The notes under the pieces: model-generated
What the model was told of the DNA's origin: nothing
The model's input: the letters and a program-made list of their open reading frames with translations, nothing else
Database searches by the model: none
In this document: positions 5,433-62,990 of the stretch, piece after piece
How the letters are laid out: each line of letters opens with the position of its first letter
Position numbering within the stretch: position 1 is the stretch's first letter
Origin: Octopus vulgaris
Taxonomy: Eukaryota
Assembly (NCBI GenBank): GCA_951406725.2
Contig: OX597835.1
Location: 39,246,001-39,310,000 of the forward strand
Length of the DNA: 64,000 nucleotides
Reading direction: 5' to 3'
Program-made: the position numbers and the translations under genes

Positions 5433-5762
5433 AGGAGATGTACTTGCATAGCAAGTGATTTGATCTGAGATCGTGTGCTGAAACGAAAACACTTGCAGCG
5501 TGGAAGGTGTTTGTAAGCCATTTAAGAAACACACAAAAGCCGTTCGATTCACTTCAACATTTAAGTTTAATTTGTCAAAATATTTTCGTCGCTTTAAGAC
5601 CGCGACCTGTTCACTGACAAAAATCCGTGCTGCATCTTTTTGTCAGTGAACAGGTCGCGGTCTTAAAGCGACGAAAATATTTTGACAAATTAAACTTAAA
5701 TGTTGAAGTGAATCGAACGGCTTGTGTGTGTTTCTTAAATGGCTTACAAACACCTTCCACGC
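5433..5762. mobile_element. PLE-like fold-back: about 125-bp near-perfect inverted arms (5498-5622 / 5636-5762), each with a variant HHR
   Basis: Arms are reverse complements with a loop of about 13 nt. HHR-like fold in each arm. Confidence 0.8.
5639..5689 (+). ncRNA. Variant hammerhead ribozyme with G3:C8 swap (mirror copy on - strand at 5571-5621)
   Basis: tttgtca GTGAACA g gtcgc ggtcttaaa gcgac GAAA a ta t TT tgacaaa: 7-bp stem I, 5-bp stem II, palindromic stem III. Confidence 0.65.
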
Positions 5763-14816: not shown

Positions 14817-15741
14817 TGATTGATTGATTGATTGATTGATTCTAGTTTCAGCTTATGAGCTGTGGCCATGCTGGGGCACCGCCATTTGGTGTTGCTACTT
14901 GGTTTCACTTCACGAAAGCTTTCTAGCAACTGCCATTTGGTGCATGAGAGAGTTCGATGCAGCTGCCCTCATCTGCCCCTCCTGCCGTGAAGTTGGTTCA
15001 TCTGGGACACCTGACAGGAAGAGATCCAGCTTCATTTTAAAGACATCTGCATCCACCCCATGCAGGTCTCTCAGGTTCTTCGGGAGGATATTGAAGAGCT
15101 GTGGGCCTCGGAAGCCCAGGCTATCACAGAATCTTATCCTACATCTTGATGGCAAGTTTGGAGTCCTAGGCACCACGCAGTGGCGCCCAGTTCTGGCATT
15201 TGCGTAACTCTCGATGCCAAAGTTCAGGACACGTCCCTCCAGGATCTTCCAGATGTATATTATGGCATATCGTTCCCGCCTACGCTCCAGGGAATATAGT
15301 TTTAATCTCTTGAGTCTTTCCCAGTAGCTTACATTCTGCATAGAGGCTATCTTCTTCGTGTAGCTACGTTGGATCGCCTCGAGCTCTGTGATCAACTTGA
15401 CACTGGATGGTGACCATAACTGAGAGCAGTAGTCAAAGTGGCTTAGGACAAGTGTCCTCCAGAGGACCATCATGGTTTCTTGTTCTCTTGTTCTAAAGGT
15501 TCTGAGGATCCATCCGGCCAGTCGTCTACATTTTCATTGCCAATTTAGCAACATGTACACGAAAGGTCGCGTCATCACTCATGTAAATACCTAGGTCACG
15601 CACTGATTGTGCCTCTGGGATTGCTATTCCTCCGGGTCCAGTGTATTCATTGGGTATTGCATTTAGTTTTGCATGCTGATAGTATAGAGCTTGAAACTTT
15701 TCAGCATTGAACTGCATGCTATTCTTTTCGGCCCACTTGTA
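14817..15741 (-). mobile_element. 5'-truncated CR1-group LINE (RT C-terminal region, 3' UTR, (AATC)n tail)
   Basis: MQFNAEKFQ, VRDLGI, DYCSQLWSP, LEAIQR, YWERLKRLKLYSLERRRER and FNILP motifs. One frameshift near 15526. Confidence 0.92.
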
Positions 15742-18802: not shown

Positions 18803-19289
18803 GACATAAATGCAGTTGTGTATTGTGTATTCCAAAATGATTTTAAATTTTACTTGCATAAACTCTTTGAATTCATCCTAAACATAATCGTTTTATATCA
18901 CGTTGCGGGACGAAGTATTTCAAAAGCAATCATTTTTTCCCCCTTGTTTTTTTCCTTTTCTGACCAGTCTTACTAATTTGCTTATCTTCATTTTGGTTTA
19001 AGATACCAAATTGAGAACATTGTTGATTACAAGCATTGCGATGCAGCAATTGTTCTGACGAAGACGGAAATGGATACGAAAGAATCAAACCGAAAACAAA
19101 ATGGTATTATAACTATAATTTATATCATAGTTACGGCTGTATCGTAACTTATAGATTATTACTACGCCAGTTAGAGAATTGATACCTATTATCTTATTTT
19201 TTGTATTTAACTGTATTCTAAGTATTAATCTAATGCATCTTTAATATTCTTTTATAACTTTTTTCCATTGGTGTATGTTGTTTTCTATC

Positions 19290-20501: not shown

Positions 20502-20890
20502 TGTGGTAAGTATCTTGCTTACCAACCACATGGTTCCGGGTTCAGTCCCACTGCGTGGCACCTTGGGCAAGTGTCTTCAACTATAGCCTCGGGCCGACCA
20601 AAGCATTGTGAGTAGATTTGGTAGACGGAAACTGGAAGAAGCCCGTCGTATATATGTATATGTATGTGTGTGTATATGTTTGTGTGTCTGTGTTTGTCGC
20701 CCCAACATCGCTTGACAACTGATGCTGGTGTGTTTATGACTCCGAAACTAGCGGTTCAGCAAAAAGAGGTCGATAGAATAAGTACTAGGCTTACAAAGAA
20801 TAAATCCTGGGGTCGATTTGCTCGACTAAAGGCGGTGCTCCAGCATGGCCGCAGTCAAATGACTGAAACAAGTAAAAAGAAAAAGGAAAA
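20502..20890 (+). mobile_element. SINE family A (older copies at 19800-20290 - and 20307-20410 +)
   Basis: Matches the consensus. Confidence 0.9.
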
Positions 20891-23874: not shown

Positions 23875-24231
23875 TCATTCATATGAGTTGAAGGTGTATT
23901 TCTGCCAGTGCATGCACCTATAGGATTTTTCTACCATTGTGTTTACTAAAGGGAATTTGGCGAAAAGTATATGGAAAAGTTCGGAATTACAGACGCCACA
24001 AAATTTTCTGCCTTTATCAAACGGAAAGGATACAGACAATATGGACCATTCCAGCTTGAAAGTTATATTGCTGTCCTTAAGGCGCCAAACTAATTTACTT
24101 ACTCCTGTGCTTTGTTGTTTTCTCTTATCTCGGGAAGTTGAATAATGATTGGAAATCCTCTGGGATAATCTAGAAGTAGTCGCCCCAATGTAGAAGAAGA
24201 CACCGGTACCGGAAGAAATTTTACACTTATA
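23875..24231 (-). pseudogene. GIY-YIG endonuclease domain of a PLE; 118 uninterrupted codons plus stop, no start codon, absent from the ORF track
   Basis: YKCKISSGTGVFFYIGATTSRLSQRISNHYSTSRDKRKQQSTGVSKLVWRLKDSNITFKLEWSIL...FCGVCNSELFHILF...VNTMVEKSYRCMHWQKYTFNSYE*. Confidence 0.88.
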
Positions 24232-24236
24232 ATTTC

Positions 24237-27884: not shown

Positions 27885-28070
27885 TATAGATCGTTAGCTC
27901 CTACACGCATTTTTTTTCTCTCCTTGTTTTTTCTGTGTATCTTTCTGTCGAAGAGCGTAGGCTCGAAACGTAAAAGACTTTTTCTATTCCTGAGCGCTAT
28001 ACTAATACATTTGTTTGTTTGTACTCCACCTGCCTTCGTCTTTTGCTTATTTTCGTAAACTTTCCCTTTA
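27885..28070 (+). mobile_element. Repeat family C: short HHR-like element ending at (TA)n (motif at 27940-27977)
   Basis: tcttt CTGTCGA a gagc gtag gctc GAAAC GTA aaaga. Seven copies in the window. Confidence 0.8.
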
Positions 28071-28869
28071 TATATATAATGTAATATGATATAATATAAT
28101 ATATGTGTGTGTATACATATGTACATGTATGTGTGTGTATCGAGGTAAATTTCATAAGAGTTTAAAGAAATCATGTGACCCGTTTTTATGCTTCGCAAAT
28201 TATTCAAACAAGTAATTGCTTAAACCAAACTCCTAGAATTGACTCTGAGTTTTTTGGGTTTTTTTCTTTTGCTGGGCCGCTATGACTCATAAAACCAGTT
28301 ACCCGATTCTGAACGGTATGTACATGAGCAACATCGCACCATTTCACTAGAGCAGAACGCTGATCCCTTGCAAGTTTCATGGCTAGGAATACTTGACAGG
28401 TATTATGTATTATTGATCTCGGAAGGGATGAAAAGTAAATGGATAGTAAATTTGACATCGGTGGGATTTGAACCCAAAAGCTAAATAGCCTGAAGAAATA
28501 TCGCTCAAAATTTTCTCCAGCGTGCTACCAATTCTGCCAACTCGCCGACTTCGAAATTTTTATTTGGAGGTAATTTTCTTCACAAGGTTTTCTTAGCAGG
28601 GACGGTACTAGAAAGTGAGGGGCCATTTTCAGAGAATAGTCAGTGGGACCCTCTACTCTATAAATGCTGAAGATTTATTGAGTGACCGTTGCTGCTAACA
28701 TAGCGCTGAGGTATTTGAATGGGTTAATGGAAATAAGTAGACATTTTCCCAGACTGTTTTTCTTGACATTTCCCAGTCTAGACATTTCTTCTAAGGATTG
28801 GCCTTTGCGCCTGTAATATAAAGCTTTTGTTAAACATTCCGCATTGTCATATATATATATATATATATA

Positions 28870-29007
28870 TAAAGGGAAAGTTTACGAAAATAAACAAAAG
28901 ACGAAGGCAGATGGAGTACAAACAAACAAATGTATTAGTATAGCACTCAGGAATAGAAAGAATCTTTTACGTTTCGAGCCTACGCTCTTCGACAGAAAGA
29001 TACAGAA

Positions 29008-29010
<3 letters not shown>
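28870..29010 (-). mobile_element. Repeat family C copy
   Basis: Motif at 28963-29000, (TA)n on both sides. Confidence 0.8.
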
Positions 29011-32573: not shown

Positions 32574-32860
32574 TTTGGCTCATAAAGCAAAAAGCAAGGC
32601 CATTTAGGGGGACATGGAGTTATGTACAGGGTGGTGTTCATGCAAAGAGTTTAGGCCACTTGTGGTCAAGAGAGATTTTGAACCGAGCGGTCGTCGGCAT
32701 CTTCACTATCTCGTCCGGCAGCTTATTCCACGGATCCGCAACTCGAACGGAGAAAGCCCCTATCCTTCGATTGAGATGAAATAATCGCAGATAGAGCTTT
32801 TCGGAGTGACCCCGCAGCCGACACTCTGGAGCAGGTGTGAAGAACAGTTCTTTCGAGGGG
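32574..32860 (-). mobile_element. 3' end of a second CR1-type LINE
   Basis: HSEKLYLRLFHLNRRIGAFSVRVADPWNKLPDEIVKMPTTARFKISLD..*. Confidence 0.8.
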
Positions 32861-34289
32861 TTACACTTTCCGCTTATGATGTTGTGAGCGAGAATGAGAT
32901 CACCACGGCGTCGTCGTTTTTCTATAGAATAAAGGTTTCGTTGTGTCTAGGGAGGGTCATTATGCCAATGTTTTCATTAGAATTCAACATAAAAAGCATT
33001 TACACCACACACACACACACACGCGCGCGCGCAACATACATAAAACCGCTGTAACACAACGATTGGACAAAGAATTTGATTCGCTAAACCAGAAATTTCA
33101 AATAAGTATTGTGGTTGATTAGTTCCACAAACATCTTGATGGTGTTGCTCCAGCGTAGCCGTTGTTTATTTTCACTTCGAACAAGCAAAACAATAAAAAG
33201 CAATTGAAAGCATATCTCATACAAGCAAAAACATGAAGATTTTTTTAAAAAATGGTTTTCAAGGGAAATAACTTTGAAGTAAAATATGGAGAGTTATTTC
33301 CCTTGAAAAATTCACACTATATACTTGTTTAAATGTTGTTTTGGTGAAAAGAGTAAAAATCATACGGACGAAATTTAAATGACAGACAGACAGACTGACA
33401 GATAGATAGATAAATAAAGTGGGTGAGTGAGAAAGAGAGAGTGGGAGATGTGTGGAGGTGTATGTACGATGTCCTGTGTATGGCTTTAAACTGCATCCTG
33501 TAGTAGAGCCCTGATCCGGTAATTCCCGGGTTTTGAGAAGTGTGGAACCACCTCTTAGACACCATTCTCCCCAGTTCTACTCTGACCCAGAATAGCTCTT
33601 GTTGGGATCCCAGCTGCAGATTTACGAGAATTTGAACTACAGGAAGTAAAGAACCCTTATTTTTGGTACAAAAGGCAACCTCTTATAAAAAGGACCTGAA
33701 ATCGAATCTGGGTCCTTCATATTATGAATCTGGGTTTCCTTCTGTGAATCCCTAGTGGCTGCAACGGTCTTTGCCTTCTTGATGGTGATTTCTAGACAGA
33801 ATTCATTAGAGACACGATCCCAATTTGATTAATTAGTTGTAATGGTACTTATTTTATCGACCCGGAAATGGTGAAGAGCGAAGTCGATCGCGGTGTAATT
33901 TGAACTGAGAACCTGGAATACATTTGGTTTCTGGTCGTCTCAACCTCTGTTGTGCCACTGATTTTATCGCTAATTACTCTGAAAAATAGGTTCTGTGTTG
34001 TGACACACTTTATCTACTCAAAACGAATTCACAGAAACTACTTTTATGAACTTACAGACTTTAGGAAGAGGATATATTTGGTCACGAGTTGACTTCCTCG
34101 ATGTACGATATATGTATGAACGATGCACGGTCATTGCAGACATCCTTTGTCTTTAGTATTAAGGCTAAGATCATTTCTGTCAGTGATGGTCATACTCGTC
34201 TACCAGACGACAGCCACCATGTACGCTGTGTTTATATATATTTATATATTTATATATATTGTATCTATGTGTATTGTATTTATATATAT

Positions 34290-34490: not shown

Positions 34491-34819
34491 ATGTTTGTGT
34501 TCATGTGTGTGGATATGTATGTATACATACATGTGTGTGCACCGCGCGCGTGTCTGTATACGGAGAAAGAGAAAGAGAGAGGCAGACATATAGACAGGCA
34601 GACAGACCGATAGGAAAAGAGGTTGACGACTGAAAACTGCATAGCTGTACAAATCTCTGCGCAATAACAACGTTGCTCGTCACAAGTTGTAATATCGCCT
34701 AAAGAGTTAAATTTAGAATCCACAACGACGAACCAATAACTTTTTAACAGGGATCTCAGCCCACATCTAATGTCTGTACATATATGTGCAGGTATAGGAA
34801 GATTTCACAAACATTTTTT

Positions 34820-35005
34820 AAAAAAGACGAAGACAGGTGGTGGAGACAACAAACAGATGTATTAGTATAACGCTCGAAAAGTGGAAAAGTCTTTAACGTT
34901 TCGAGCTTACGCTCTTCTACAGAAAGAGACACAGAATAAAAACACAGGAAGAAACAATGAGAGAAAATAAAGAATGTGTAGTGGTTAGCAATCTGTCATG
35001 GCGAT
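34820..35005 (-). mobile_element. Repeat family C copy
   Basis: Motif at 34890-34927 (CTGTAGA a gagc gtaa gctc GAAAC GTT). Confidence 0.78.
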
Positions 35006-35291: not shown

Positions 35292-36209
35292 TTTAAAAAT
35301 TAAGGGTAAAAATTGATATTAGTCAATTAAAACCAGTGGTCTAGCATATTAAAAAGAATCCGAAGATTAAAATATTTATATATACCAATAAAGGACTGAA
35401 CACGAAAAAGTGGACAGTCAACATGCTAGATATAGACGTCAAATTGTCATTCTCCACAAAGATTATGTTCTCAAATAAAATAAAATTCAGCACGACCCAA
35501 AGCAATAAATAAGACAAAAGAAATATACGAAATGGAATAATCACCTGTGTACCGAACGGTTTCAGTTATTAATATCACAAGGATATCTGTAACTTCGTCA
35601 GCACAGTTTGTTGAGAACATAATCTTTGTGGAGAATGGCGATTTGACGTCTATATCTAGCATGTTGACTGTCCACTTTTTTGTGTTCAGTCCTTAATTGG
35701 TATATATAAATATTTTAATCTTCGGATTCTTTTTAATATGCTAGACCACTGGTTTTAATTGACTAATATCAATTTTTACCCTTAATTTTTAAATATGAAA
35801 TATATGTTCTTAAACCGATAAATTGACTGCTGCTAATTATTAGCTGCAGGCTGGTTTTTCGAGTCTCAGCGCGCCAAAAGTAAAGGCATTTGAAAGATAC
35901 ATTCGAACTTAATCGGTTGTACTTTTTTGCATACGAGACCCCGGTATCGTTTTTCATCTAGTCCAGCAAATTATGTTCATAACAAACTGTGCTGACGAAG
36001 TTACAGATATCCTTGTGATATTAATAACTGAAACCGTTCGGTACACAGGTGATTATTCCATTTCTTATATTTCTTTTGTCTTATTTATTGCTTTGGGTCG
36101 TGCTGAATTTTATTTTATTTGAGAACATAATCTTTGTGGAGAATGGCGATTTGACGTCTATATCTAGCATGTTGACTGTCCACTTTTTCGTGTTCAGTCC
36201 TTAATTGGT
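35292..36209. mobile_element. PLE-like element with inverted plus tandem terminal repeats (35292-35610 -, 35611-35794 +, 35980-36209 +); HHRs at 35545-35606 (-) and 35987-36048 (+)
   Basis: ctgtg CTGACGA agtta...taact GAAAC cg tt cg GTA cacag. (TA)n on both sides. Confidence 0.85.
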
Positions 36210-36330: not shown

Positions 36331-36444
36331 CATACATATATATTTATATGTATATATATATATACATATATATATATACATATGTATATATATGTATGTA
36401 TGTATATATGTGTATATATATATACATACTCTCTTATACACACG

Positions 36445-36735
36445 CACACCTTTGTGTTGGGGGCACCTTCGTATTGGAAGTCACTTGACCCTGTTATCTC
36501 CCCTACTGTCCCTCTCGCGTCTGACCATTGTCCGAAGTCAGTACACCATGATAGATCGTTAGCTACTACACGCATTTTTTCTCTCCTTGTTTTTTTTCTG
36601 TGTATCTTTCTGTCGAAGAGCGTAGGCTCGAAACGTTAAAGACTTTTTCTATTCCTGAGCGTTATACTAATACATTTGTTTGTTTTGTACACCACCTGCC
36701 TTCGTCTTTTGTTTATTTTCGTAAACCTTCCCTTT
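36445..36735 (+). mobile_element. Repeat family C, long copy
   Basis: Motif at 36605-36642. Extra 5' sequence is shared with 62625-62945. Confidence 0.8.
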
Positions 36736-37020
36736 ATATATACATACATACATACACACACACACAAACACACACACACATATACATACATACATACATA
36801 CATACATACATACATACATACATACATACATACATACACATACATGCACATACTAATACAATTGTTTGTTTGTATTCCACCTGCCTTCGTCTTTGTTTAT
36901 TTCCGTAAACCTGCCTTCGTCTTTTGTCTATTTTCATAAAGCTTCCCGTTATATATATATATATATATATATATATACGCGCTATCTATCTATATATATA
37001 TATATATATATATATACGCG

Positions 37021-41104: not shown

Positions 41105-41422
41105 GACGTGGCTGTGTGGTAAGATTCTTGCTTCCCAACCACATGGTTCCGGGTTCAGTTCCACTGCGTAGCAATTTGGCCGAGTATCTTCTACTCGAGC
41201 CTTGCGAGTGCATTTGGTTGACGGAAAATGTTTGGACCGCTGAAATCTACAAATTTTAAAAATTCTATCTCGAATTTCTTTTATTCCTTTCTGTCGAAGA
41301 GCGTAGGCTCGAAACGTAAGAGACTTTTCCATTTCTCCAGAGCGTCAAACTAATACACTTGCTTGTTGTTCCTACACCTGTCTTCGTCTTTTGTTTTTCT
41401 ATAAATTTCTTTCAACTGTATA

Positions 41423-43448: not shown

Positions 43449-43785
<337 letters not shown>

Positions 43786-62624: not shown

Positions 62625-62938
62625 ACGGGGAGGTTTACGAAAATAAACAAAAGACGAAGGTAGGTGGAGTACAAACAAACAAATGTATTAGTATGGCACT
62701 CAGGAATAGAAATAGAACAAGTCTTTTACGTTTCGAGCCTACGCTCTTCGACAGAAAGATACACAGAAAAGAAACAAGGAGAGAAACAAGGAGAGAAAAA
62801 AATGCGTGTAGGAGCTAACGGTCTATCATGGCGTTCTGACTTCAGGCAGAGGTCAGACATTAGACACTAGAGGGATAGTAGGAGAGATAACAGGGTCAAG
62901 TGACTTCCAAAACGAAGGTGGCCCCAACACGAAGGTGC

Positions 62939-62945
<7 letters not shown>
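62625..62945 (-). mobile_element. Repeat family C, long copy
   Basis: Motif at 62722-62759, ends at (TA)n. Confidence 0.8.

Positions 62946-62990
<45 letters not shown>

Follow-up and report, generated by a model that had tools for sequence, protein, structure and literature searches.

A uridine at core position 6 in the hammerhead motif of an abundant Penelope-like element of Octopus vulgaris

The pseudo-LTRs (pLTRs) of metazoan Penelope-like elements (PLEs), those of Neptune included, carry minimal hammerheads, ribozyme motifs that have no loop III and are expected to act as dimers, and the dimer cleavage measured for them was low (PMC4209133). Such motifs have an extra base after A9, a G10.1-C11.1 pair and a palindromic 15.2-16.2 step; many of 56 of them end in GAAAC-GU-H, all 56 published motifs of Figure S3 have A at position 6, which the descriptor used there required, and the only core variant reported is U3-A8 (PMC4209133). 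Changes at the core are known from elsewhere. Natural A6C hammerheads are slow in Mg2+ yet active (PMC3088659, PMC7151607), cutting well in Mn2+ and falling nearly silent in low Mg2+ (PMC7151607), and natural A6C and U4C variants both retain some activity (PMC3088659). For the element that houses the motif, the closest descriptions are those of the Neptune and Nematis EN+ PLEs (Craig et al. 2021, PMC8557442), and the same source reports that Naiads thrive without canonical hammerheads. In the PAc Poseidon element of the green anole (Frangieh et al. 2024, PMC11167929), the protein takes uncut RNA as its template and initiates reverse transcription at an internal point downstream of the hammerhead; the hammerhead cut only with its protein bound; and cutting is not needed for insertion, catalytic mutants being without effect in vitro.

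Against these systems we set family C of Octopus vulgaris. What is unusual in it is the A6U core; the rest of the motif is of the PLE type already described. We found neither a natural A6U hammerhead nor a rate for A6U in the literature searched, which did not extend to the largest survey of these motifs, and A6U is absent from the text and Figure S3 of PMC4209133. How, then, should a hammerhead be read that has spread through a genome with the wrong letter at one position of its core?

The motif and its copies in the window

By the window we mean the whole 64-kb stretch of DNA that was analysed. Exact matching of CTGTNGANGAGC-N3-8-GCTCGAAAC across it gave seven hits (27945+, 28971-, 34898-, 36610+, 41291+, 43662+ and 62730-), and 100 shuffles gave none. 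These are the seven copies that a first-pass annotation, made from the letters alone, had listed, each in its place, and most of what it said of them holds: all seven have U6; the variable positions are N7 (C/A), loop II (GUAG/GUAA), H17 (A/U) and one stem I wobble, a U.G pair in the copy at 41291; stem III is ACGU with no loop; and the 5' ends vary. Other parts of that description stand only in trimmed form. The conserved part of stem I is 4 bp, a fifth pair being broken in 11 of 17 distinct sequences. The common 3' end, counted from C3, falls at about +122 to +130 in six copies of the seven, and the (TA)n that had been placed there is found in five, while the copies at 34898 and 41291 meet a short TA-containing sequence; the 3' TATA is partly the element's own, continuing TATATATTATG into the 5' UTR of full-length copies.

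The first copy may stand for the rest. Its minimal type I hammerhead motif (27941..27976, +) has a stem I of 4 bp, C3 at 27945, U6 at 27948, an extra A9.1, stem II GAGC/GCUC, the ACGU stem III and H17 at 27972, and it lies in a PLE end piece (27888..28068, +) that starts 57 nt upstream of C3 and ends at (TA)n. The second end piece (28866..29010, -; C3 28995, U6 28992, H17 28968) is flanked by two (TA)n tracts, its ends being approximate, and the third (34797..34991, -; C3 34922) has A at N7, loop GUAA and U at H17. Copy 4 (36438..36734, +; C3 36610) keeps a longer 5' part of the pseudo-LTR; downstream of it is a piece of the family's tail alone, internally duplicated and lacking a hammerhead (36849..36958, +). 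Copy 5 (41229..41410, +, 3' end approximate; C3 41291) carries the wobble and belongs to an old subfamily, copy 6 (43595..43783, +; C3 43662) again has A at N7, and copy 7 (62625..62955, -, 5' end approximate; C3 62754) is the longest in the window. Compared with the window, the full element gave no match beyond its last 290 nt: the window carries only ends of the family C element.

Set against the hammerhead core C3-U4-G5-A6-N7-G8-A9, the motif has U at position 6 and agrees at the other six positions; G12-A13-A14, A15.1-U16.1, H17, the extra base 9.1, G10.1-C11.1, the palindromic 15.2-16.2 step and the location in PLE pLTRs are all those of the PLE minimal hammerhead. With the motifs of PMC4209133 it shares the type I topology, the short stem I, the extra base between 9 and 10.1, G10.1-C11.1, GAAAC-GU-H without loop III, a predicted dimer, presence in both pLTRs and mostly solitary copies, and it differs from them in its U6. 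The loopless stem III and the need for a dimer, which the first-pass annotation had singled out, are thus present but not novel, being the norm for metazoan PLE hammerheads (PMC4209133), and since PLE dimer hammerheads have been described (Cervera and de la Pena 2014), the obligate dimer is an ordinary trait.

The window holds other hammerhead-like sequences. A different family has two copies here, in inverted orientation at 35601 (-) and 35992 (+), of a canonical type I hammerhead with A6, a long stem II and a palindromic stem III, and related CTGACGAAGACG...GATACGAAA motifs without an intact stem II lie 580 nt apart at 19055 and 19636 (+); the latter are possibly a decayed or differently wired hammerhead. 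Rfam was of no help, the 150 best of its 479 window matches being microsatellite matches with no hammerhead among them, and an Rfam search of a 201-nt piece found no hammerhead at E 10. Elsewhere there are a GIY-YIG piece of another PLE protein (23878-24234, -; Pfam E 3e-4, below cut-off) and an N-terminal piece of another PLE protein with ADKT (2501-2917, +), neither similar to the family C ORF, and a near-perfect, MITE-like inverted repeat of 160 nt (5550-5710). Short ORFs at 14910-15533 (-) and 32638-32946 (-), without a Pfam match, resemble what we take to be C-terminal pieces of LINE reverse transcriptases. The window contains no tRNA and therefore no SINE head.

The parent element and its abundance

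Followed upstream, as the first-pass annotation had proposed, the longest copies run into an ORF whose product combines the thumb of a PLE, the linker CSRPRCxTC and an endonuclease with YIGQT. A protein search for relatives returned 16,141 candidates, of which 150 were scored, and 20 loci were picked for long open frames. Nine of these 20 have the arrangement pLTR-ORF-pLTR with a U6 motif in each repeat, the two motifs 4.44-4.58 kb apart and the pLTRs 97.2-99.8% identical; in the remaining 11 a motif is present on the 3' side alone, likewise with U6. Anchoring on the ORF found a downstream motif in 24 of 30 loci, every one U6, and none in the remaining six. In six of the nine two-repeat elements DKGG, YIDD, CSRPRC and YIGQT stand together in one open frame, and the nine differ from one another by only 0.2-1.5% (mean 0.8%), so the U6 lineage moved recently.

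The protein of one element (L083) has 1,064 aa. In Pfam the ORF protein matches RVT_1 above the cut-off (E 1e-7) and GIY-YIG below it (E 0.007), with the YIGQT motif visible; the ORF has no PDB match. A single ORF with RT and C-terminal GIY-YIG is what EN+ PLEs have, the tandem or partial-tandem copies form pseudo-LTRs as those of PLEs do, and the linker, CSRPRCRTC (CX4CxxC), fits the CX2-5CxxC of the Neptune/Nematis type. With these PLEs (PMC8557442) family C further shares the DKG motif of the RT, tandem and inverted insertions and (TA)n targets; it differs in its non-canonical core, and its placement with Neptune or Nematis is by linker motif, not by an RT tree. In L083 and its relatives the sense strand is strongly C/T-rich, and beyond the endonuclease the ORF goes on for about 90 codons, entering a low-complexity, pyrimidine-rich tract whose length varies.

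How abundant is it? The exact 27-nt core with U6 occurs 16,012 times in the 2.8-Gb genome, the reversed core, our control, not once genome-wide, and the core with A, C or G at position 6 occurs 622 times, the first 100 of those being 71 C, 18 A and 11 G. A downstream anchor matches at 20,661 places; among 92 copies picked by it the exact core is present in 37 and the hammerhead region is kept in 77, which puts the family at about 33,000 or more motif-bearing copies. Contigs of four sequencing runs (which hold no information on RNA ends) also contain family C, and in them no variant of 5% or more appears at U6.

Tandem copies, which the first-pass annotation had recommended looking for, are few: three of 60 loci scored tandem, one of them a miscall, against 51 single copies and six inverted pairs. 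Its guess of a successful Penelope-like family is borne out by the copy number, the two-pLTR loci and the intact elements, and its alternative of a short retrozyme-like element falls, the window copies being the ends of an autonomous 4.5-kb PLE. Family C has an autonomous ORF and mostly single, dispersed copies and so departs from the animal non-LTR retrozymes (PMC7229834; bioRxiv 10.64898/2026.07.22.740005), which are non-coding short tandem units; the likeness to them is limited to a few short tandem derivatives. One such derivative (L423, G000:C8:18599000-18605000) has a 492-nt period and five U6 motifs, another (L422) a period of about 466 nt with a U6 motif in each unit, and both arrays are retrozyme-like and derived from a PLE end. 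At L424-L425 (G000:C6:117387000-117406999), four U6 motifs spaced by about 4.47 kb mark a tandem array of full-length units. Family C itself is a very abundant, recently active autonomous Penelope-type element of the Neptune/Nematis type.

Selection on the fold and the ancestry of position 6

That the hammerhead fold is under selection is borne out by a site test that needs no tree. From the 92 anchor-picked copies, 13 that were cut short and two intact ones that failed a flank filter were dropped, leaving 77, and a site was called variable when a non-CpG minor allele was present in five or more copies. None of 30 hammerhead-constrained sites is variable, as against 18 of 50 downstream (p 6e-5) and 39 of 99 in all flanks (p 6e-6); with CpG decay counted, the figures are 2 of 30 and 19 of 50 downstream (p 0.002). 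The excess of core conservation over flanks, whose absence the first-pass annotation had named as grounds for giving up its reading, is thus present. U6 is found in 73 of the 76 copies with a letter at position 6, and taken by itself this constancy does not reach significance, as some 60% of the flank sites are unchanged too.

The pattern within the motif is as follows. Across six subfamily majorities, only N7 and H17 vary among the 28 columns from C3 to H17, and on the tree N7 changed four times, H17 three times (A/U only) and 11 fixed core sites not at all; this tree was built on flank columns, which makes the tree-based test partly circular, and we have therefore relied on the tree-free one. 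In 17 distinct sequences, sister families included, the stem I pair 2.4-1.4 is C-G in 11, G-C in three, G-U in two and A-U in one, never broken, which gives a compensatory pair between sister families. In stem II there is no covariation, all four pairs being invariant.

Where did the uridine come from? Position 6 was left free in a scan of related PLEs on metagenome contigs, 80 loci in all, and the 30 motifs found (in 28 of the loci; shuffles gave 0.4 per set) all have A6. Within the genome, sister families have the same stem II and homologous flanks; CUGA motifs with that stem II match 5,238 times, about 240 of the matches being family C, and 40 of 40 anchor-picked sister motifs are A6. In the oldest subfamily of family C, position 6 among the first 100 of 594 matches is U in 79, C in 14, A in six and G in one, above the background there of 3.9% for T>C and 1.4% for T>A (p 4e-5 and 0.003), and no A6 or C6 clade is resolved in its star-like tree. 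In the younger clusters every copy that was not picked for a non-U base has U6. Taken together, the A6 of the relatives, the mixture in the oldest subfamily and the U6 of the younger clusters make A6 ancestral, labile early and U since. Other U6 families with a different stem II were sought among the first 100 of 649 matches, and nearly all of these are mutated family C copies; nine belong to another family, which is also seen with A6.

The sister family has a core change of its own. Its anchor matches 8,453 times genome-wide, and at the sampled loci (L483-L532, none in the window) 31 of 40 motifs have U4C and eight have U4, a second core variant at high copy number. No ORF was found upstream in 27 of its loci, so its identity as a PLE rests on the shared motif and flanks. 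The core has drifted twice in this genome (A6U and U4C), and this does not separate a slowed ribozyme from a dead one.

Insertion ends, uncut templates and the state of the ribozyme

Copying of cut RNA would produce insertions that begin at +28. In the young subfamily, 50 TA-joined starts fall at the cut site (56 matches, six internal indels dropped) and 39 at a matched control site in loop II (41 matches, two dropped), with 22:18 expected, so there is no excess (p 0.83). Starts at +25 to +30 number one among 79 anchor-picked copies and starts at +28 one among 95 junctions with 5' UTR; of these junctions about 42 extended to the limit of the sequence compared. The sister family is unfit as an active-core control for this test because it is mostly U4C. 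The 5' ends accumulate instead at a landmark, CGCCATG, which precedes C3 by 64-79 nt: of the 51 copies that extend as far as this landmark, 33 terminate no more than 25 nt from it, the density of ends there is 2.6% per nt (0.3% downstream, 0.6% upstream), four of the seven window copies start at it, and seven loci of the 5'-UTR set, the 492-nt five-motif tandem included, restart at -63 to -73, mostly at -68. We read this pile-up as the RNA 5' end, though reverse transcriptase may instead stall strongly there. The copied templates are uncut, which does not mean that the RNA never cuts, for cut RNA may not be copied.

We argue, with a little better than even confidence (about 0.52), that the U6 motif, set in a pseudo-LTR of the autonomous PLE, acts as a slowed ribozyme, probably one assisted by protein, and that most of the transcripts stay uncut. 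The lineage fixed A6U while keeping all other core and stem positions. Transcription would likely start some 70-80 nt upstream of C3, and reverse transcription would likely begin at an internal site near +125 to +135, with (TA)n as the target; copying back through the uncut hammerhead to the RNA 5' end would then yield the short copies. Two tandem pseudo-LTRs may pair through ACGU/ACGU into a double hammerhead, whose rate U6 would lower both because the contacts made by A6 are lost and because a competing helix (U4.G16.2, G5-C15.2, U6-A15.1) is predicted, which would hide the ACGU palindrome. Model predictions on 40-nt pieces give this helix a probability of 0.44-0.98 when position 6 is U (three sequences) and of 0.00-0.11 when it is A or C (four sequences); pieces of 126-136 nt fold no better than shuffles (z about 0.2-0.5), with no stable long-range structure. 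The anatomy of the element, whose 3' end is fixed within its own TATA, near +125 to +135, and whose targets are (TA)n, fits the Poseidon model. Family C and PAc Poseidon have in common a PLE hammerhead, uncut RNA as the main template and, as family C appears to work, an internal start of reverse transcription downstream of the hammerhead; they differ in clade, and protein-assisted cutting was measured only in Poseidon (PMC11167929). With the Bcep176 phage A6C hammerhead (Perreault et al. 2011, PMC3088659), family C shares a natural change at position 6 in an otherwise intact hammerhead; there the letter is C, at one locus, with normal stems and an assayed slow rate, while family C has U6 in tens of thousands of copies of a minimal motif of the dimer type.

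The strongest rival, to which we give appreciably less credence, is that the fold is catalytically dead and is retained because the element's protein or some other step of transposition recognises it. The genome shows no cleavage footprint, two large sister lineages became fixed for separate changes in the uridine turn (A6U and U4C), and the spread of the sister with U4C in 31 of 40 motifs fits dispensable catalysis equally well; the still-inserting catalytic mutants of Poseidon in vitro (PMC11167929) and the Naiads (PMC8557442) point the same way. Yet the 11 core sites without a lineage change, the free N7 and an H17 confined to A/U form the pattern of a catalytic core, the unchanged sites include C3, G8, A9, G12, A13, A14 and U16.1, which are unpaired in both predicted folds, and hammerheads with a natural A6C or U4C are still somewhat active (PMC3088659). 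The slow A6C, the Poseidon precedent and the predicted U6 helix lead us to favour the slowed ribozyme over the dead fold.

It is improbable that the motif is fully active in the cell, with the ORF protein or another metal compensating for U6, cutting at roughly the pace of the A6 relatives and the cut RNAs never copied into the genome. Rescue of A6C by Mn2+ (PMC7151607) would allow it, and the lineage grew to at least 16,012 exact copies after A6U; however, relative to the A6 sister motif there is no compensating change in core or stem, U6 is predicted to add a misfold, and the reverse-transcribed templates mostly hold an uncut motif. Least probable of all is conservation at the level of DNA, an internal promoter just downstream of the start site with an inherited hammerhead look, for although the likely 5' end of the RNA is some 70 nt upstream of the motif and stem II does not covary, a DNA site predicts neither free positions at exactly N7 and H17 nor the compensatory pair in stem I.

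Returning to the slowed ribozyme, one may speculate, and we hold the idea only tentatively, that two sister PLE lineages independently tuned their hammerheads down, by A6U and U4C, to slow but working forms, since only uncut RNA could be copied through the pseudo-LTR, and that A6U is active with the element's protein or with another metal. PLE hammerheads cut poorly in vitro and proved dispensable in the one reconstituted system, and family C offers a natural experiment on their role, with intact young elements, the ancestral A6 state and a U4C sister in one genome. Hammerhead searches that require CUGANGA overlook entire families whose copies run to tens of thousands.
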